A DNA stretch of 39,692 nt from an uncultured archaeon (GCA_964347045.1 CAYFXC010000017.1:1-39692); one strand, 5' to 3'. Positions 5,639-35,086 are shown, counted from the first letter of the stretch. Notes: generated by a model not told the origin, from the sequence alone. Program-made: numbers and translations.

Positions 5639-7414
5639 CTATTCAAGGATCGCCCGCACTCTAAGAGTATCTGCTCCAATGCGTTTTTGCTTCATGATGC
5701 GAAATGTCCCAAGTTTACCAGTTCGACTAACATGAGGTCCACTGCAAATTTCTTGGGATACATTTCCAACCGAATATACTTTGACTTGTTCACCATATTT
5801 TTCACCAAAGAATCCTAGTGCACCCTGCATCCGAGCTTCTTCCGGTGTCATCACCTTAAAACTAACAAGTAAATCGCGTTGGATGATTTTGTTAACCCAC
5901 TTTTCAATTTGTTCAACTTCTTCTGGTTTTAGCTTACGATTTAATTGGACATCCAAACGTAAGCGATCTTTTGTGATATTGCTACCCTTCTGGTAAATTG
6001 AAGGTCCCACAATCTCACGGAGCGCCTTATGAAGTAAATGAGTTGCAGTGTGAAGACGAATAACTTCCTCGGAATGATCTGCTAAACCGCTGGCAAATTT
6101 TTGTTGGGTGGCATCTCGGGAAATTTGTCGATGCTGTTCAAACTCCTTTCGAAATTCTTCCAAATCAACCTGCTGACCATTCTCTTCAGCAATCTGAACT
6201 GTCATCTCTATCGGGAAGCCGTAAGTAGCAAAGAGCGTGAATGCGTCTTTTCCAGTAAGCATTCCTTTCTCCTTTAATGTTTTTTCGGCAATTCGCAGTC
6301 CACGCCGAACCGTTGTACGAAACCTTTTCTCCTCCTTTTCTATTTCGCTTAAAATGCGTTCCTTATTGCGAAGTAGCTCTCCGTATTCATTACCTAGGCA
6401 GGCGATAATTGGTGGGATTAATTCACCTAGGAAGAATTCGTCAATTCCTAGCTGTAATGCCTGTCGAATTGCTACCCGGATTAACCGACGAATAACATAA
6501 CCTCTTTCAACATTAGAAGGCACTAATCCTTGGTCATCTGCTAAAGCCATCACTGCGGAACGAACATGGTCTGCAATTATCCGGATCGACCGTTGCTGAC
6601 CCGTTGAAGGCTTTGTGATTTGGGCAATCTTTTTTATTTTATCTACGATGGGTTTGAAAACATCAGTTTCGAAGACACTGGGAAATTGGTTCAATACTTG
6701 GAGAGTTCGTTCCAAACCCATTCCTGTGTCAATATTCTTTTTTTCAAGGGGTGTCAACGTTCCATCTTCAGCGCGATTGTAGGACATGAAAACAAGGTTC
6801 CATATCTCGACGAATTTCCCACACCCACAACCTGGACGACACGTTTCTGAACAGGTTGGTAAGCCAATATCCACAAAAATCTCAGTATCGGGTCCTTGCG
6901 GTCCCGTATCGCCAAGAGCCCACCAGTTGTCCTTGTAAGGTAAGTAGTGGATATGGTTACGCGGTATCCCAAGGGTTTCCCAAGCATGAGCTGCTTCTTC
7001 ATCTGCGGGAACTTGGTCGTTTCCTTCAAAGACAGTGACATGTAAAACCTCTTTTTCTAATCCAAGGCCGACCTCTGGATTGAGGAGGAATTCCATCGCC
7101 ATTTCTATGGCACTTTGTTTCCAATAGTCTCCTAATGACCAATTCCCCAACATTTCAAAGAAGGTTAGATGAAAAGTATCACCGACTTCATCGATATCAT
7201 CAGTTCGAATACATTTTTGGACATTTACTAGCCGCGTCCCTTCAGGATGGGGTTGCCCTAATAAGTAAGGAACCAACGGTTGCATACCTGCACTTTGGAA
7301 AAGAACCGTTGGGTCAAGCTGTGGTATGAGCGACGCGGAAGGAATAATGGCATGACCTCTTTCTGTGAAATATTGAATGTAGCGTCTTCGAAGTTCCGGT
7401 GCCATCATTCGCAT
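5639..7414 (-). CDS. alaS: alanine--tRNA ligase, compact bacterial-type (no C-Ala domain)
   Basis: DPTVLFQSAGMQPL, VQKCIRT, HLTFFEMLGNWSLGDY, EIWNLVFM, IDTGMGLER, GYVIRRLIR; editing-domain HTATH and EICSGPHV. ATG 7414 follows a gagga RBS. Confidence 0.95.
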   Translation of the reverse strand: MRMMAPELRRRYIQYFTERGHAIIPSASLIPQLDPTVLFQSAGMQPLVPYLLGQPHPEGTRLVNVQKCIRTDDIDEVGDTFHLTFFEMLGNWSLGDYWKQSAIEMAMEFLLNPEVGLGLEKEVLHVTVFEGNDQVPADEEAAHAWETLGIPRNHIHYLPYKDNWWALGDTGPQGPDTEIFVDIGLPTCSETCRPGCGCGKFVEIWNLVFMSYNRAEDGTLTPLEKKNIDTGMGLERTLQVLNQFPSVFETDVFKPIVDKIKKIAQITKPSTGQQRSIRIIADHVRSAVMALADDQGLVPSNVERGYVIRRLIRVAIRQALQLGIDEFFLGELIPPIIACLGNEYGELLRNKERILSEIEKEEKRFRTTVRRGLRIAEKTLKEKGMLTGKDAFTLFATYGFPIEMTVQIAEENGQQVDLEEFRKEFEQHRQISRDATQQKFASGLADHSEEVIRLHTATHLLHKALREIVGPSIYQKGSNITKDRLRLDVQLNRKLKPEEVEQIEKWVNKIIQRDLLVSFKVMTPEEARMQGALGFFGEKYGEQVKVYSVGNVSQEICSGPHVSRTGKLGTFRIMKQKRIGADTLRVRAILE

Positions 7415-7527
7415 AGCTAATATCCTCAATTTATGTTTGTTTAAGACCATCGATTGTAGATTGAGAATAGCCCGTATTATGACTAGTAATGCTCTGAAAG
7501 AAATAGTCCTCTTTAATTATTCGGCTC

Positions 7528-16804: not shown

Positions 16805-17761
16805 ATGACAAACGGAACAACCAACTATGATGTAATAGTAGTCGGCGGCGGACCGGCTGGAATCGCTGCTGCGATGCATCTGGGATTTCACCAACGTGAA
16901 GTTCTCGTCGTAGATCGAAAGACTTCTCCGATGCAATTTGCTAATACTCCCATTCACAATTATCCCGGTGTTCAACCACTAAAGGCTAGTAACGATATCC
17001 TACGGAAACTACGAAAGGAACTCAGTGAATTCAACGTAAAAACCCTCTTCGGAAATGTCATAAGCATTCAAGGTCAAACTCCCTCGTTTCAAGTGCAAAT
17101 CAAAACTTCCAAATCTACACCTCTTCTTTTTAATGCCAAAACAATCGTCTTGGCAACCGGTATTGCCCGGAAACACCCCAAAGTCGATGGCGACTGGAAA
17201 AAATGGCTCCCATTTGCAGCAAAAGATCATATGAGCTATTACTGCCCTGATTGTGATAGCCCGCAAACTTATGGAAAAGACATATTAATAGTAAATGCTG
17301 GAACCGCAAATAGCGCATTGCATGTTGCTCGAAGCATCCAACCTTTTGCAAAGCGTATTCGCATTTTTATGACCGAAGATGGATACGCTCCTTTCACTAA
17401 AGAAGCGGAATCTATTCTGAATCAATCTGGGTTTGAATGGACCCATGGGCTCATTAAAGAAATTAAGATATTGGAACCTGGAAAACGTCAGCAACTTCTT
17501 AGTACCGACGGACAAATTTTCGAGTGTAATACTTTTTTTGTTTCATGGATTGGAGTTCCCCGTAGCGATTTAGCAGTATCAATGGGAATCGAAGTAGATA
17601 ATCGAGGAAGTATAATCACCGACCATCGTGGGGCTACCAATGTTGAAGGTGTATGGGCCGCGGGAGACGTCCGACCCATAACCCAATCAATTGCTACTGC
17701 CGTGGGAACTGGGGTCTATGCTGGGATTATGATTGCCCACTATCTACTGAATCTTGATTGA
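16805..17761 (+). CDS. thioredoxin reductase-like FAD-dependent disulfide oxidoreductase
   Basis: VVGGGPAG, NYPG, LATG, SYYCPDCD (CxxC), TNVEGVWAAGDV; gaggag RBS. Confidence 0.85.
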   Translation: MTNGTTNYDVIVVGGGPAGIAAAMHLGFHQREVLVVDRKTSPMQFANTPIHNYPGVQPLKASNDILRKLRKELSEFNVKTLFGNVISIQGQTPSFQVQIKTSKSTPLLFNAKTIVLATGIARKHPKVDGDWKKWLPFAAKDHMSYYCPDCDSPQTYGKDILIVNAGTANSALHVARSIQPFAKRIRIFMTEDGYAPFTKEAESILNQSGFEWTHGLIKEIKILEPGKRQQLLSTDGQIFECNTFFVSWIGVPRSDLAVSMGIEVDNRGSIITDHRGATNVEGVWAAGDVRPITQSIATAVGTGVYAGIMIAHYLLNLD

Positions 17762-22745: not shown

Positions 22746-23420
22746 TCAGAAGATGGTCTTTGCTGTGGGTGTGGGATTGTAGAAAGGACCATGTACTGGC
22801 AATAGCACTTCTCGGAATGCTTCAGCGTACTCACATCCACCTTGAAGGCCGCGGAGTCGGGCTTTTTGGAGATTGAAGGAAAGATAGTAATCGTCGGCTT
22901 TTTTTAGTTGGCTGTGATATTCAGAGATTGCTTGGGTTTTCAACGCAATAACCTCTGAAATATCAATTAACACAGATGGTTCTGCGAAAAGGTTATTGAT
23001 TTCCATGCTGAACAATCGTTGTGGGCGCCAGGCCTTCTGTTTGTACTGTGTAGAGTGACCTGCCCATTCCGCCGCTCGTTGGAAAGCTTGATGTACAACT
23101 TGGTGATCCGGATGATAATCTGGGGCGCTATGTGATATTATTACTTCCGGCTGAACTTGTTGGATGATTGGGATGAGGGTATTTGTCACATCTTTTACTC
23201 TAGGACTCAAATCCTTCGCTTTTAAGGCAATAACCTTCGCTCCCAGGACTTTACAAGCGGCTTTCAACTCCCGATGTCGTGCTCCAGTTCCTGTAAGACA
23301 GCAAACAGTCACATGAGACCCTTGGGAGGTTTCAAGAGCGATTGTTCCTCCACATCCAAACGTTTCATCATCGGGGTGAGCCCCGATGATTAGTAGGCGG
23401 CGAGGAGTTGATTTTGGCAT
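22746..23420 (-). CDS. bshB1: PIG-L family deacetylase, BshB1-like (GlcNAc-malate deacetylase)
   Basis: AHPDDETFGCGGT, HPDH, RLRGLQGGCEYAEAF; divergent from bshA. Confidence 0.8.
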   Translation of the reverse strand: MPKSTPRRLLIIGAHPDDETFGCGGTIALETSQGSHVTVCCLTGTGARHRELKAACKVLGAKVIALKAKDLSPRVKDVTNTLIPIIQQVQPEVIISHSAPDYHPDHQVVHQAFQRAAEWAGHSTQYKQKAWRPQRLFSMEINNLFAEPSVLIDISEVIALKTQAISEYHSQLKKADDYYLSFNLQKARLRGLQGGCEYAEAFREVLLPVHGPFYNPTPTAKTIF

Positions 23421-23535
23421 GTACTATAGTACACCGGGTTCTTTCCAAAAGGTTTGCTGGCAGGAGGTTTTTACGGTTTTTTTCTGACAAGGTAACACAT
23501 AAGGGCGTGAAAGACTGCGTCCAATGAGACTGATT

Positions 23536-24642
23536 ATGCGAATTGGTGTCACTGTTTACCCAGGCATTGGTGGATCTGGTCTTCTTGGCACTCGGTTGGG
23601 TGTCGAAATGGCCAAACGGGGTCATGAAATTCGATTTATTACTTATGAGGTTCCCTTCGAATTACAAGAAGGTCGGCACGAGAATGTCAAGGTCGACCTT
23701 GTTGACGTTTTAGAATACCCGCTCTTTCGCTATCCCCCTTATACGGTAGCTCTTGCATCTCGAATGGCACAAGTTGTCCAAAAGCACCATCTGGATCTTA
23801 TTCATGTACATTATGCCATCCCTCATGCGCTATCTGCTTTCATTGCGCAGCAAATGACTGGTGTTCCTTATGTTGTCACATTACATGGTAGTGATGTCCA
23901 CACACTTGGTGCAGATCCCTCATATCAACCTGCAACTCGTTATGCAGTCGAAGCTGCTAATGCGGTCACATGTGTTACCAAACATATCTGTCAAACAGCT
24001 GAACAAACTCTTGGAATCCGATGCTCTGTTGAACCTATCACTAATTTCACGAATACTGAAATTTTCAAACCAAATTCTTGCGAATATAATTCCGGTGATG
24101 AGAAGCGGCAATTAATCCATGTTTCAAATTTCCGTCCAATTAAGCGGGTTAGTGACTTAGTAACAGCATTCGCTCAAATTGCTGACAAAGTTCCTAATGT
24201 TGAACTCTTACTACTTGGGGATGGACCTACTCGGCCTGAAGTTGACCGGCTTATTCGGAAATTTGAGTTAAATAATCGCGTCAACTGCCCTGGGTTTAAG
24301 CGTGATGTCTATCAGTATCTTCGATGTGCTGATGTTTTTGCTTTAAGCTCTGAATTAGAAGGGGCGCCTCTCTCCCTTCTTGAAGCAATGAGCTGCGGTC
24401 TCCCAGTCGTCGTAACAGATGTGGGCGGAATCCCTGAGATTATCAAAGATGGTGAAAACGGGCTTCTCGTCCCCTTCGGAGATATTGATGCCCTCGCAGA
24501 AAAACTATATGCCGTCCTCACAGACACTTCACTTGCTGGTGAACTTGGCAGAGCGGCTCGACAATCAATCCTTGAAAATCACACACCTGAAAAGATTCTA
24601 CCACAATATGAGGCTGTATACAAAACTGTACTTCAAGAGTAA
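23536..24642 (+). CDS. bshA: N-acetylglucosaminyl-L-malate synthase BshA (GT4)
   Basis: MRIGVTVYPGIGGSG, YPLFRYPPYTVALASR, IHVHYAIPHA, TLHGSD, IHVSNFRPIKRV are BshA-characteristic motifs. Confidence 0.88.
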   Translation: MRIGVTVYPGIGGSGLLGTRLGVEMAKRGHEIRFITYEVPFELQEGRHENVKVDLVDVLEYPLFRYPPYTVALASRMAQVVQKHHLDLIHVHYAIPHALSAFIAQQMTGVPYVVTLHGSDVHTLGADPSYQPATRYAVEAANAVTCVTKHICQTAEQTLGIRCSVEPITNFTNTEIFKPNSCEYNSGDEKRQLIHVSNFRPIKRVSDLVTAFAQIADKVPNVELLLLGDGPTRPEVDRLIRKFELNNRVNCPGFKRDVYQYLRCADVFALSSELEGAPLSLLEAMSCGLPVVVTDVGGIPEIIKDGENGLLVPFGDIDALAEKLYAVLTDTSLAGELGRAARQSILENHTPEKILPQYEAVYKTVLQE

Positions 24643-24795
24643 TATCAAGTGTTTACTCTGTTTTGCCATAACGATATAGAAGGGAGGTAAATGTAGTCAG
24701 ATACTTCGTCGATCTTGGATTATTATTAGAACTTCCATTTTAGTTTGCTCGGATTTGAGCAAGTCCAATAGAAATAATCTTGCCAAGTCTCGATA

Positions 24796-26559
24796 TTACA
24801 AACCATTATCTACTAAATAAAACGTTGCTGCAGATGGAGTATATTCCTGGTAATGGGAAAGGAGTCTTGTAAAGTGGTTCTCTGGGTTTATTGACATGGC
24901 CACGTCAATCCAGATGAAACTCACTTCTTGGCCAATCCGTTCAGCGGAATAGCGACCAAACATCTGTGATAAATAAATTTGAAGTAGTTGTCGACGCCGC
25001 GTGAGAGTTCCGATAAGTGTTTGGCTTTCTTTTTTGAGTGAAGGATCAGTTATCTCACGCTGGCGAATAATCAATTCCTTCCTTTCTGTCTCCAGTTGAG
25101 ATTCTGCACTGATTAGGCGTGTTGCGGTTTCGCTGATGTGTTTTTTGCAGGCAGCAAATAAAGATTGTACAACGCCTGTATTCTTTTCTTTGTATCCGGT
25201 ATTAATTGCAGACTCTAGTCTTTGTAGTTCATCATGATTTAGCGGCGTGAGATTCCCACGCAGAAGTCGTTGAGCTGTGTGGTTTGTCCATGGGTTTTCA
25301 TAGTAAAGGCGAGTGTATCGAAAGAAAATTGGAACGACGCTATTATTTGCATGGAGGGCAGGTGAAACTTGTGCATGATAACTTGTTTCCCCAGAACCTC
25401 CAATGTGGATGATAACTGGTGTATAACTTTGCACAAGAAATGCGCGGGTGTCAACACGTGGAGAAAGATACATCTTCCAATCTTCAAGATCGGGAGCAGT
25501 TGCTTTGACCTCAATTGTATGAGTCGTGTTACATTTAGGGCACTCAGCTGAGATGATGGTATCTGTTCCTGACGAGTTCAGGCTAAGTGTAGGATCAAGG
25601 CGTGTTCGATTACAGTCTAAGCTAGGGCATTCAATATGGAACGGAACGTAATTGTCTGCTCGCCTACCTATTGCTGGTCCATATCCTTGTTGTTCAAGTT
25701 GAAGGGCGCTTCTATTGAGTGCCTGAATTAAGGTTTGTCGATTTGTTTCAGTTAGCAGATATTCAAATGCAGGTAACATCAGTTCGCGTATTGTGGGATT
25801 TGAAAATATCTGGAATAGTACACCACAATCCTGAGATAGGTTAGTAATACGCATCCAAAGAAAGGTGGTCCATTCTGAGATAGTTTGTGCTCTGTCATAG
25901 GTTGACTCCAGAAGATTTTGAATGATACCCGCTCTTTTTTCATACACACTAAGGCTTTGTTTTCTAGATCCTGCTACTAGCTCATGATACGTTGATATGA
26001 ATTTCTTAATGATTTGCTTTAGCCATTCTTTGGGTGGAAGTGGTAGAACGTGCATGGGTGACATTTTGTACTCTTTGGGAACGGGTAACGAAAAGGTAAG
26101 CCCTCGTGGTCCTGGGCTTGGCAAATGAATAACTGTCAATTCTTTCTGTTCATGATCGTGATCACCAACAAACATAACGGGTGTGGACTGTTGGATTGAG
26201 GCCACCTTTGTAATTGATGCAATTTTGTTAATAACAAAGCCTGGTCCTCCTAGGACGGCTGGTTGGTGTCCTGCTTCGATTACTGCCCCCTGGTCTTCAA
26301 GCTTTGTAAGATTCCGTTTAACCTGTGGCGTGAGCATATTGAATTTTCGATGAATGGATTTGATGGTTTTGCAAAGTAAACTAAGGCGTTCCTGAGTGAA
26401 GATGGGTTGTTTCTTGGGGTATGCGTTCATCAAGGGAGTGCTTAGGGTGATCGCTTCTTTGATGTTCCGTGGAATCGATCCCCAGAATTGAAGTGCAGAT
26501 TCATTGCCGTCAAATACATAGTCCGTATAGAGCTTACTGGGTGGGGGCTGTGGAGTCAT
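24796..26559 (-). CDS. bshC: bacillithiol cysteine-adding enzyme BshC homologue
   Basis: EAGHQPAVLGGPGFVINK, PVMFVGDHDHE, LSPRVDTR, HIGGSGETSYHAQ and a C-terminal coiled coil correspond to BshC motifs GQQ..L.GP.Y..K, EDHD, FS.NV..RP and GPGE..YW. ATG 26559 follows an aggag RBS. Confidence 0.8.
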   Translation of the reverse strand: MTPQPPPSKLYTDYVFDGNESALQFWGSIPRNIKEAITLSTPLMNAYPKKQPIFTQERLSLLCKTIKSIHRKFNMLTPQVKRNLTKLEDQGAVIEAGHQPAVLGGPGFVINKIASITKVASIQQSTPVMFVGDHDHEQKELTVIHLPSPGPRGLTFSLPVPKEYKMSPMHVLPLPPKEWLKQIIKKFISTYHELVAGSRKQSLSVYEKRAGIIQNLLESTYDRAQTISEWTTFLWMRITNLSQDCGVLFQIFSNPTIRELMLPAFEYLLTETNRQTLIQALNRSALQLEQQGYGPAIGRRADNYVPFHIECPSLDCNRTRLDPTLSLNSSGTDTIISAECPKCNTTHTIEVKATAPDLEDWKMYLSPRVDTRAFLVQSYTPVIIHIGGSGETSYHAQVSPALHANNSVVPIFFRYTRLYYENPWTNHTAQRLLRGNLTPLNHDELQRLESAINTGYKEKNTGVVQSLFAACKKHISETATRLISAESQLETERKELIIRQREITDPSLKKESQTLIGTLTRRRQLLQIYLSQMFGRYSAERIGQEVSFIWIDVAMSINPENHFTRLLSHYQEYTPSAATFYLVDNGL

Positions 26560-27775
26560 GATTTGGCTTCTCCTGTGGTTGTCGTCGAATGGTAAGTCCA
26601 ACTAGAAACGTTAGAAAACCCAGTGTGATGATGAGGGCAATTAGTGTTACCATATTAGTCACCAAGTACTCAGTATCAATAATTGGAACCGAACCAAGAG
26701 AAGACCATTCCTCTAATTCAATTCGATGGACCTGATACGAAAATAAGTTCGCTTCTTCTGTTCGTCGTTTAGCAATATAATCGCTGGTAATAATTTGCCA
26801 AAGTGTAACGAATGGCAAATTCGAGGCAAAAAGAGAATCCGTGTAGGCCCTAGCAGCATCTGTTCCCGGTTCTAATGTAAACAGATCGAAGGGTAACCAT
26901 CCCCATGGTGGTACAAATGCCATAGTCCAACCATGACCAGCGGAGTTTTGGTAATCAACATAGCGGTACGCATTCTCCTCTACAGACCCCCAAATAAAAC
27001 CACTTGTTCGTGCGCCCTCTTGAAACCAATGGCCTGTTGTTAAATAACTTGGAATATCAAAAATGCGGAGCAGAGCAATCAGAAGATTGGATTGGTCGTC
27101 GCAATCACCTCTTTGACTCACAATGGTTTCTTCAGGATATTGTGGTTCAGTAACCCCGCTTGAACGGGCAATATTACTTTGTATCCATTGGATTGTTGCA
27201 TATATTAGGGCAAGAACATTATCTTGTTGTTCTTGTGGAAGTTCTTCACGGATAAGCTGTGCAAGTTCAATGAGGCTAATATTCCATGTTTTCCATAAGG
27301 ACGTTGCCTGAATGTACAACAAGTAATCATCGGTGCCTAATAGGTCTTCAATGTCTCCAAGGCGTCCTGATTGCGCGATACCAATAAGTGGTAGCAATGG
27401 GCGTCGATTTGCTACGGTGAATAGCCATTCCTCATCCCATCTTAGGACCTCTTCCGGTGCCAGCATTGAAGTCAAATTTAGTGCTAGACGTGGGTTTCCA
27501 TCGACGTCGATACCTAACTCGGTAGGCATAATCGGGGAGTTATTTAGTGTCAGTTGGAAGGAAAGTTGTTCACTTGTTTGCCATGTTGTATTGCCAATAT
27601 AGTCCCAATATGGTGAGATTGGTAATGAATCATTTCCCGTTGGTTCGATCGATCCCGAGAAATGAACTCGCCAAAAGTGAACGTAGTTAAAAGCTGAAAC
27701 GCTGGGGGGGAGGGGCACAACGACTAAGAAAAGAAGGAAGACAATTATAAAGAGCCATACGCGGTTATTGCGCAT
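26534..27775 (-). CDS. secreted, membrane-anchored transglutaminase-like (Cys-His-Asp) protein
   Basis: Signal peptide, GDCDDQSNLLIALLR, GHGW..FVPPWGWLPFD, C-terminal TM helix. Confidence 0.85.
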   Translation of the reverse strand: MRNNRVWLFIIVFLLFLVVVPLPPSVSAFNYVHFWRVHFSGSIEPTGNDSLPISPYWDYIGNTTWQTSEQLSFQLTLNNSPIMPTELGIDVDGNPRLALNLTSMLAPEEVLRWDEEWLFTVANRRPLLPLIGIAQSGRLGDIEDLLGTDDYLLYIQATSLWKTWNISLIELAQLIREELPQEQQDNVLALIYATIQWIQSNIARSSGVTEPQYPEETIVSQRGDCDDQSNLLIALLRIFDIPSYLTTGHWFQEGARTSGFIWGSVEENAYRYVDYQNSAGHGWTMAFVPPWGWLPFDLFTLEPGTDAARAYTDSLFASNLPFVTLWQIITSDYIAKRRTEEANLFSYQVHRIELEEWSSLGSVPIIDTEYLVTNMVTLIALIITLGFLTFLVGLTIRRQPQEKPNHDSTAPTQ

Positions 27776-34318: not shown

Positions 34319-35086
34319 TTAATCCTTTTTCGCCTTCATTACGAGGAAGAATGGAATTCGATGCTCCCGCTCAAAAAAGGGTTGATTATTGCGTGGTCGT
34401 GGCTCTTCAAATGCTGTTAATCGAAATTTTGCGTTAAGCAGTGTTTTGACATATGTACTAATTGTTCGATGAAAAAAGCTGAATTCTTGTGGAAACCCCT
34501 CTCCCTTTCTTGTTTTCCATCGTACTCGATATTCCTTCTCTACAAAGTATTCATCCATTACAAAGTGTTTACCTCGTCGACGTCTTGACCGAGGATCTTT
34601 CTCTCCTAGCTTCCACTGTCCTGGCCCATAGACATTGAACGCTGGATGAACGATTGAAAAAATCAGGAAGCCCTTGGGTCGAAGCACCCGATGGAATTCT
34701 AATACGCATTCGTTCAAACAATCAAGATTCAAGAGTACCAGGTTACATAAGATGATATCAAATTCCTCATTTTGGAAGTCTTTTAGCTCACATAGATTTC
34801 CAACCAGAAATCTAATTTTATTTTTTTGAGCATGTTTTTTACTAATCTCAATTAGAGTTGGAGAGAAATCAACACCTACAACATCAGCGCCTTTTTGGGC
34901 GTAGTATTTTGAAAGATATCCATCCCCACAACCTGCATCTAGAATTCGGCGTCCTTGGACATTCCCCATTAACCGTTCAATACAAGGGTTGAGTATTTCA
35001 CGATGATGCGGTGTACCTTCTCTGTTAATTAATTGAGCATAGGCTTCAGCATTAGCTTGCCATTGACGACGAAGCTGATCAGTCAT
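34319..35086 (-). CDS. class I SAM-dependent methyltransferase
   Basis: ILDAGCGDG, GVDFS, FDIILCNLVL, RVLRPKG, FSIVHP. Confidence 0.9.
   Translation of the reverse strand: MTDQLRRQWQANAEAYAQLINREGTPHHREILNPCIERLMGNVQGRRILDAGCGDGYLSKYYAQKGADVVGVDFSPTLIEISKKHAQKNKIRFLVGNLCELKDFQNEEFDIILCNLVLLNLDCLNECVLEFHRVLRPKGFLIFSIVHPAFNVYGPGQWKLGEKDPRSRRRRGKHFVMDEYFVEKEYRVRWKTRKGEGFPQEFSFFHRTISTYVKTLLNAKFRLTAFEEPRPRNNQPFFEREHRIPFFLVMKAKKD

Follow-up and report, generated by a model that had tools for sequence, protein, structure and literature searches.

A bacillithiol-type bshB-bshA-bshC locus with an archaeal-type BshC-like protein in a Hermodarchaeota archaeon

Three adjacent genes of bacillithiol (BSH) type were found at positions 22746-26559 of the window, which is the entire 39,692-base contig C17 (CAYFXC010000017.1:1-39692) of the metagenome-assembled genome (MAG) GCA_964347045.1. 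The genome (2.58 Mb in 83 contigs, 88.9% complete, 3.8% estimated contamination) is that of a Hermodarchaeota (Asgard) archaeon. The genes encode a BshB-like deacetylase, the glycosyltransferase BshA and a BshC-like protein. Their homologies, the predicted fold of the BshC-like protein, their conserved clustering and their residence in archaea are described below. The locus is a vertically kept archaeal triad and it probably makes bacillithiol or a close thiol of the cysteine-glucosamine-malate type, a product that we infer, as we do every chemical step. An earlier reading of this DNA, made from the sequence alone (the sequence-only reading), had placed three bsh-type open reading frames (ORFs) side by side here, and the ORF list, NCBIfam and Pfam bear this out. 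The BshB-like PIG-L/LmbE-family deacetylase (224 amino acids) is encoded at 22746-23420 (-), BshA (368 amino acids from ATG 23536) at 23536-24642 (+) and the archaeal-type BshC-like protein (587 amino acids from ATG 26559) at 24796-26559 (-). The arrangement that had been described was also found, with bshB and bshA divergent over about 115 bp (23421-23535; exactly 115 bp when bshA starts at ATG 23536) and bshC converging on bshA across a gap of 153 bp.

BshA, a homologue of the family 4 glycosyltransferase (GT4) N-acetylglucosaminyl-L-malate synthase, scored 381 bits (E 5.6e-114) on TIGR03999, which is over the curated equivalog cut-off of 273.7 bits, and a six-frame search of the genome gave 380.6 bits. 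Its Pfam domains, Glyco_transf_4 and Glycos_transf_1, are those of the GT4 GT-B architecture. Other models were matched at 61.5 bits (MshA) and 50.7 bits (N-acetylglucosamine (GlcNAc)-phosphatidylglycerol synthase). BshA proteins or their orthologues made up the five best PDB matches (266-308 bits), and TarM came next at 79 bits. The nearest structures were 2jjm and 3mbo of B. anthracis (~308 bits, E about 1e-90), and the five also include the B. subtilis structure 5d00 and two structures from S. aureus. The N-terminal motifs GGSG, YPPY, HVHYAIPHA and TLHG(S/T)D were observed to be nearly alike in both aligned proteins. With BshA matched at equivalog level, GlcNAc-malate is the simplest choice for the first intermediate. 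The BshA sequences that come next in closeness beyond the Hermod clade (49-54% identity) are labelled Bathyarchaeota or Bathyarchaeia wherever an organism name is given.

The BshB-like protein matches Pfam PIG-L (PF02585) with 81.6 bits, and its best NCBIfam match was BshB1 (TIGR04001, 104.2 bits, E 8.4e-30), ahead of BshB2 (73.6 bits), MshB (41.3 bits) and Mca (39.7 bits). The nearest solved relatives are BcZBP of B. cereus (2ixd, 64 bits) and BshB1 of B. subtilis (6p2t, 58 bits). The AHPDD and HPDH motifs of the deacetylase align with AHADD/AHSDD and HPDH of these two structures, and by comparison with BcZBP they are taken to be metal-site motifs. This gene is the sole PIG-L gene detected in the genome. 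It adjoins bshA divergently in the window and in those Hermod-type loci that reach this flank, and bshB also lies next to bshA in the Asgard families f31, f8 and f12. In family f7, bshB was not found near bshA in the stretch that was read.

For the BshC-like protein, TIGR03998 was the only NCBIfam match (79.8 bits, E 1.9e-22), and the Pfam family Rossmann-like_BshC (PF10079) was matched with 71.8 bits, its gathering score being 27. As a single sequence the protein has only a weak match to B. subtilis BshC (32 bits); when 28 family members were combined into a profile and searched against the PDB, the BshC structure 4wbd was the one match (E 2.9e-23). The AlphaFold2 model (pLDDT 94.2, pTM 0.93), which has long helices at 461-502 and 506-534, gave 4wbd as the top Foldseek match (E 1.6e-20; template-modelling (TM) scores 0.67/0.72; 594 aligned columns) over its full length, helical hairpin included. 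The next matches were class I lysyl-tRNA and methionyl-tRNA synthetases (LysRS and MetRS; 1irx at E 6.6e-08). The Rossmann-fold core of the model is like that of these enzymes, but the TM-scores are only 0.2-0.4 and no family model of an aminoacyl-tRNA synthetase (aaRS) matches the sequence. The predicted architecture, a Rossmann core of class-I-aaRS-like type with a long helical hairpin behind it, is the fold of 4WBD.

Residues common to the archaeal-type and most canonical BshC proteins are Q99, K112, D135, E140, F307, R320, G388, G390, E391, Y394, P410 and Q544, and the GxGE..Y motif was found in most of the archaeal-type and bacterial-type sequences sampled. The archaeal type departs from the canonical one at R368 and D370 (canonically N and a hydrophobic residue), at G104, N111 and W550, and in an added Cys cluster that is described further below.

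The triad was found to be at home in archaeal genomes. A scan of species-representative genomes placed the nearest relatives of the BshC-like protein (55-71% identity) at 14 loci, all of them in MAGs titled Hermodarchaeota, Promethearchaeota, Odinarchaeota, Thorarchaeota or just archaeon. Synteny was followed by tblastn with ten window proteins, the order being scored wherever the contig reaches (contigs up to 232 kb). The order bactofilin, metallo-beta-lactamase (MBL)-fold protein, bshB, bshA, bshC, transglutaminase-like gene, E2F/DP-like gene, orf138 and M28 peptidase was observed in 14 independently assembled Hermod-type MAGs, with identities of 72-87% for BshA, 60-79% for BshB and 55-71% for BshC. 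G+C is 0.42-0.45 across the locus, equal to that of the flanks. The flanking genes, which include class I LysRS, DUF92, DUF116 and an Asgard E2F/DP-like gene, are archaeal or Asgard in type. The host is an archaeon, and a bacterial chimera was rejected on the synteny and the even G+C.

BshC was originally found through its co-occurrence and co-localisation with bshA (PMC5790435). Among 400 Asgard genomes, BshA was over its cut-off in 146, and a match to the BshC model was observed in 166, of which just 11 were over the BshC cut-off (~375-389 bits, mostly in family f12). By family, BshA and the BshC-like protein respectively occur in 15 and 16 of 18 genomes of f1, in the single genome of f6, in 30 and 29 of 31 genomes of f7, in all three genomes of f8, in 12 and 11 of 12 genomes of f9, and in 10 and 11 of 12 genomes of f12. 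In three unlisted families both were found in 76 of 89 genomes. The large family f20 has BshA in none of its 135 genomes and five weak BshC-like matches. These counts are descriptive and carry no statistical test, as the genomes are related to each other.

Where both genes are listed, bshA and the BshC-like gene are mostly within about 2 kb of each other on the same contig. In ten loci of other Asgard families, the three bsh genes form a cluster in f31, f8 and f12 and lie within 13 kb in f9, and in f7 bshA adjoins bshC. In family f12 (L016-L026, L032 and L037), the BshC found beside bshB and bshA is of the bacterial type. Archaeal-type BshC is widespread in Asgard genomes and is also present in Bathyarchaeota-labelled MAGs.

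One such MAG, GCA_018648905.1 (L039:6291-13399; L040), carries a cluster with, in sequence, PIG-L, Amidohydro_2, BshC-like, Thioredoxin_9 and BshA (384 bits) genes, two DinB_2 genes and a MerR/GyrI-like regulator, which is a fuller thiol-linked gene set than that of the window. DinB_2 is the fold of the bacillithiol and mycothiol S-transferases, so this cluster points to a thiol. The genome studied here has four DinB_2 genes, which are putative thiol transferases, and one Thioredoxin_9 gene. In each Bsh-positive Asgard family almost every genome has DinB_2, which is rare in f20 (16 of 135 genomes).

In the pathway that we consider probable, BshA would transfer GlcNAc from UDP-GlcNAc onto L-malate, as its membership in the BshA family model suggests. 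The PIG-L metallo-deacetylase would then remove the acetyl group to give glucosamine (GlcN)-malate; its family, the aligned metal-site motifs and the linkage to bshA are consistent with this step. Finally, the BshC-like enzyme would add cysteine to the free amine, a step to which its fold and linkage point. The resulting thiol may serve DinB-family S-transferases and general thiol protection, and its recycling would need enzymes outside the Firmicute Brx/YpdA set.

The same three enzyme families make up the bacterial BshA-BshB1/B2-BshC pathway of B. subtilis, B. anthracis, S. aureus, Deinococcus and Thermus. BshA at equivalog level, the aligned metal-site motifs of the deacetylase, and the fold and most core residues of the BshC-like protein are alike in the two systems. 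In both, bshA adjoins bshB, an arrangement seen in the B. subtilis operon (PMC5790435). The archaeal system differs in its Asgard host, in having all three genes clustered and in having a single deacetylase with no BshB2/Bca paralogue. It also differs in the conserved insertion of three to four Cys residues and the SPRVDSR motif of its BshC-like protein, in BshB-like and BshC-like proteins that fail the curated cut-offs, and in a genome where searches for BrxA/B, YtxJ and YpdA found none of them. The mycothiol pathway of Actinomycetes (MshA-MshB-MshC) follows a like logic of GlcNAc transfer by a GT4 enzyme, deacetylation by a PIG-L enzyme and cysteine addition by a class-I-aaRS-like enzyme. 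However, the Msh models score low here (MshA 61.5 bits, MshB 41.3 bits), no match of the MshC/cysteinyl-tRNA synthetase (CysRS) type was seen for the BshC-like protein, and the predicted acceptor is malate whereas that of mycothiol is inositol phosphate.

When 1.84 billion cluster representatives were searched exhaustively with HMMER for relatives of the BshC-like protein, 42 clusters were found at E < 1e-30 and 59 at E up to 1e-10. Those full-length top-tier matches that were aligned have 23-55% identity to the query; bacterial-type BshC matches of 520-550 amino acids start at about E 1e-11 downwards. In 28 archaeal-type sequences, C311 and C340 were observed to be invariant, C343 was found in 27 and C316 in 11. 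The four positions correspond to 25531-25629 (-) of the window, and in the AlphaFold2 model they are located on a beta subdomain with strands at 307-352. The C311/C316/C340/C343 pattern is that of a putative zinc ribbon on this small subdomain. The cluster is absent in 34 of 45 weaker matches (bacterial-type or weakly related representatives), and in these 34 sequences S-x-N-V-x-x-R stands at the position of the archaeal-type SPRVDSR.

An unrooted maximum-likelihood tree, whose bacterial-type sample is limited to the sequences reachable from the query, separates bacterial-type BshC from a Cys-cluster superclade with a Shimodaira-Hasegawa-like approximate likelihood ratio (SH-aLRT) support of 100. 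The superclade consists of the archaeal type (SH-aLRT 98) and a third group (100). Three Asgard sequences, two from f12 and G286 of f24, were found inside the bacterial-type clade, and this nesting points to a separate acquisition. Two members of the third group, both with the Cys cluster, were seen in their gene context. The Longilinea arvoryzae gene (L038:8001-9575) adjoins flavin reductase and aminotransferase genes, and the gene of an Asgard genome of family f10 (L046:6155-7846) adjoins an aminotransferase gene. This f10 genome is BshA-negative with a weak BshC-like match, and a scan of the ORFs of at least 150 amino acids at L046 found neither a GT2 nor a PIG-L gene.

Several points weigh against the pathway proposed above. 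According to PMC7278568, no archaeon has ever been found to contain bacillithiol. Two of the three proteins are under their curated cut-offs by a wide margin, with 104.2 vs 182.5 bits for the BshB-like protein on TIGR04001 and 79.8 vs 265.8 bits for the BshC-like protein on TIGR03998. Of the family names given in the sequence-only reading, only BshA is confirmed by its curated cut-off (381 vs 273.7 bits), while 'bshB1' and 'bshC' are best-match names only. The same reading had called BshC much more divergent than BshA, and this holds. The BshC-like protein is in a fully supported separate clade, with a Cys-rich insertion and SPRVD replacing S-x-N-V, and its substrate could therefore differ. 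The third group, which is the sister of the archaeal-type clade, is not linked to BshA, and it may carry out a different, undescribed reaction, as its gene contexts suggest. In this 88.9%-complete genome there was no match to BrxA/B (PF06491) or YtxJ (TIGR04019), and the best YpdA match (TIGR04018) reached 68 bits against a cut-off of 339.9. The role of redox buffer, which had been ascribed to the product by inference, was overstated. DinB_2 was also found in the BshA-negative families f10, f11 and f3, and for this reason the DinB_2 genes are weak support for the pathway.

The main alternative is that the divergent BshC-like enzyme gives a modified product. The locus would then make a different glucosamine conjugate, built on GlcN-malate or on GlcN joined to another hydroxy-acid, and the BshC-like protein would attach something other than plain cysteine or use another activated donor, so that an undescribed archaeal thiol or amide results. 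We regard this as rather unlikely. It would fit the score of the BshC-like protein (79.8 of the 265.8 bits required), the separate archaeal-type clade (SH-aLRT 98) in a Cys-cluster superclade that is split from bacterial-type BshC (100), and the presence of SPRVDSR instead of the canonical S-x-N-V-x-x-R together with the gained insertion of three to four Cys residues. It would also fit the absence of the Firmicute recycling genes, and the position of the nearest other clade beside aminotransferase and flavin reductase genes, not beside BshA. However, BshA is a clear equivalog-level match for which GlcNAc-malate is the simplest first intermediate, and archaeal-type and canonical BshC have most core positions in common. 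Furthermore, family f12 pairs a BshA of the same kind with a canonical BshC that is over its cut-off, which suggests that BshA can be partnered interchangeably by either BshC type.

A further proposal concerns the mechanism. MshC and CysRS use an active-site zinc. The archaeal-type BshC might be a mechanistically distinct enzyme in which the three to four Cys residues bind zinc and recognise the cysteine thiolate, as in CysRS and MshC, or dock an activated-cysteine donor; we hold this to be doubtful.

A second alternative is that the GT4 and PIG-L enzymes make a glycolipid or envelope component by GlcNAc transfer and then de-N-acetylation, on the lines of GlcN-phosphatidylinositol or archaetidylinositol synthesis, with the BshC-like gene as an unrelated neighbour. 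A GT4 enzyme with a PIG-L deacetylase is in general a generic two-step module (PIG-A/PIG-L, MshA/MshB and BshA/BshB), and the BshB-like protein is under the BshB1 cut-off. This alternative is nevertheless very improbable. The GT4 enzyme reaches 381 bits with the BshA model, compared with 61.5 for MshA and 50.7 for GlcNAc-phosphatidylglycerol synthase. BshA adjoins a BshC-like gene in most of the Bsh-positive genomes listed, across many Asgard families and in the Bathyarchaeota-labelled MAG as well, and such a degree of linkage would be unexpected for a neighbour by chance. Finally, a bacterial segment mis-binned or chimerically assembled into the archaeal MAG, which the bacterial character of BSH genes and the 3.8% estimated contamination might have suggested, is rejected with near certainty because 14 Hermod-type MAGs, each assembled independently, keep the nine-gene block in the same order on contigs of up to 232 kb, G+C in the locus is as in the flanks (0.42-0.45) and the genes on either side are of archaeal or Asgard type.

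With regard to other thiol systems, no GCS2-type gamma-glutamylcysteine ligase was found in this genome. A window gene at 16805-17761 (+) was considered as YpdA/Bdr and was rejected, as it scored 124 bits on the thioredoxin reductase (TrxR) model (cut-off 343) and only 40 bits on YpdA. A methyltransferase at 34319-35086, the one gene considered as NmbA (N-methyl-bacillithiol synthase) in the window, was also rejected, since its NCBIfam and PDB matches were generic class I methyltransferases and nothing named NmbA.

The idea of archaeal bacillithiol is already published and annotated, and the locus adds one more member to a set of archaeal genes that had been noted before. Rawat and Maupin-Furlow (2020) counted 39 archaeal InterPro matches each for BshA and BshC, mostly from Asgard archaea, and proposed that archaea may make BSH (PMC7278568, section 13). 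The sequence-only reading had limited the archaeal thiols to coenzyme A (CoA), gamma-glutamylcysteine and coenzyme M, and thereby overlooked these homologues and this proposal. BshA and BshC are also names that NCBI records of Promethearchaeota, Hodarchaeota, Thorarchaeota, Ca. Harpocratesius and Bathyarchaeota already bear. NCBI-named BshA relatives are 82-85% identical to the BshA of the window, and the same BshC clade also has members that NCBI names BshC. On the other hand, Hammerstad et al. (2025), using RefSeq only, found no archaeon with the pathway (PMC12719100), so archaeal BSH is not yet settled in the literature. In the papers searched, bacillithiol was not connected with Asgard archaea or Bathyarchaeia anywhere else.

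The window thus adds detail and not discovery, since the basic idea is already published and annotated. Rawat and Maupin-Furlow (2020) gives hit counts only; BshB, the clustering, the separate BshC clade, the Cys cluster and the missing recycling genes are not part of it. New here are the definition of an archaeal-type BshC clade marked by a Cys cluster and the SPRVDSR motif, the strict pairing of this clade with BshA in the Asgard families, the DinB/thioredoxin context in the Bathyarchaeota-labelled MAG and the absence of the Firmicute recycling proteins.

Asgard archaea are the closest prokaryotic relatives of eukaryotes. If the proposed pathway is correct, Asgard archaea (146 of 400 genomes have BshA over its cut-off), and possibly Bathyarchaeia, would have thiols of the bacillithiol type as a major redox cofactor, and a thiol that is regarded as bacterial would then occur in two domains of life. 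Within the pathway only the BshC reaction is still unsolved, having been reconstituted in vitro for no BshC (PMC5790435), and a separate conserved clade with a putative metal site offers a second, independent enzyme form to try. If the archaeal-type BshC should be mechanistically distinct, the BshC reaction could at last be reconstituted, and the product might be a bacillithiol variant and the first glycoside thiol in Archaea.

The start sites and the spacer between bshB and bshA were also compared among relatives. The ORF list gives bshA as 23524-24642 (+), with 372 amino acids. In 13 of 13 relatives the start ATGCGAAT aligns with ATG 23536, and ATG 23524 does not recur there. For bshC, an alternative upstream start at TTG 26601 would give 24796-26601 (-) and 601 amino acids. 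An alignment of the spacer (23421-23535) from the window and 13 related loci retained two boxes, the remaining spacer being variable. The box CCAAAAGGTTT (23445-23455) is located 25-35 nt before the bshB start and the box AACACATAAGGG (23494-23505) 31-42 nt before the bshA ATG 23536. By their position, both are candidate promoter elements.

A transglutaminase-like gene (26534-27775 (-), 413 amino acids; PF01841, 43.6 bits) is located immediately upstream of bshC on the same strand and shares 26 nt with the start of bshC, with which it is probably co-transcribed. Among the 14 Hermod-type loci it was observed directly upstream of bshC wherever this flank is covered, whereas in the 10 loci of other Asgard families bshC has no such gene beside it. 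The gap between bshC and bshA, only 153 bp in the window, is about 600 bp in the Hermod-type relatives L002, L003, L004-L006 and L010-L012. The window has no nitroreductase-family gene between bshC and bshA; in L003 the gap holds a 170-residue nitroreductase-family ORF on the bshC strand (L003:7865-8377), which matches BluB/NADPH-nitroreductase models with 59-62 bits.

Elsewhere in the window, scans for tRNAs and Rfam families found none. An alanyl-tRNA synthetase ORF of 603 amino acids at 5639-7450 (-), for which the Pfam scan shows no additional C-terminal domain, stops right after its tRNA_SAD domain.

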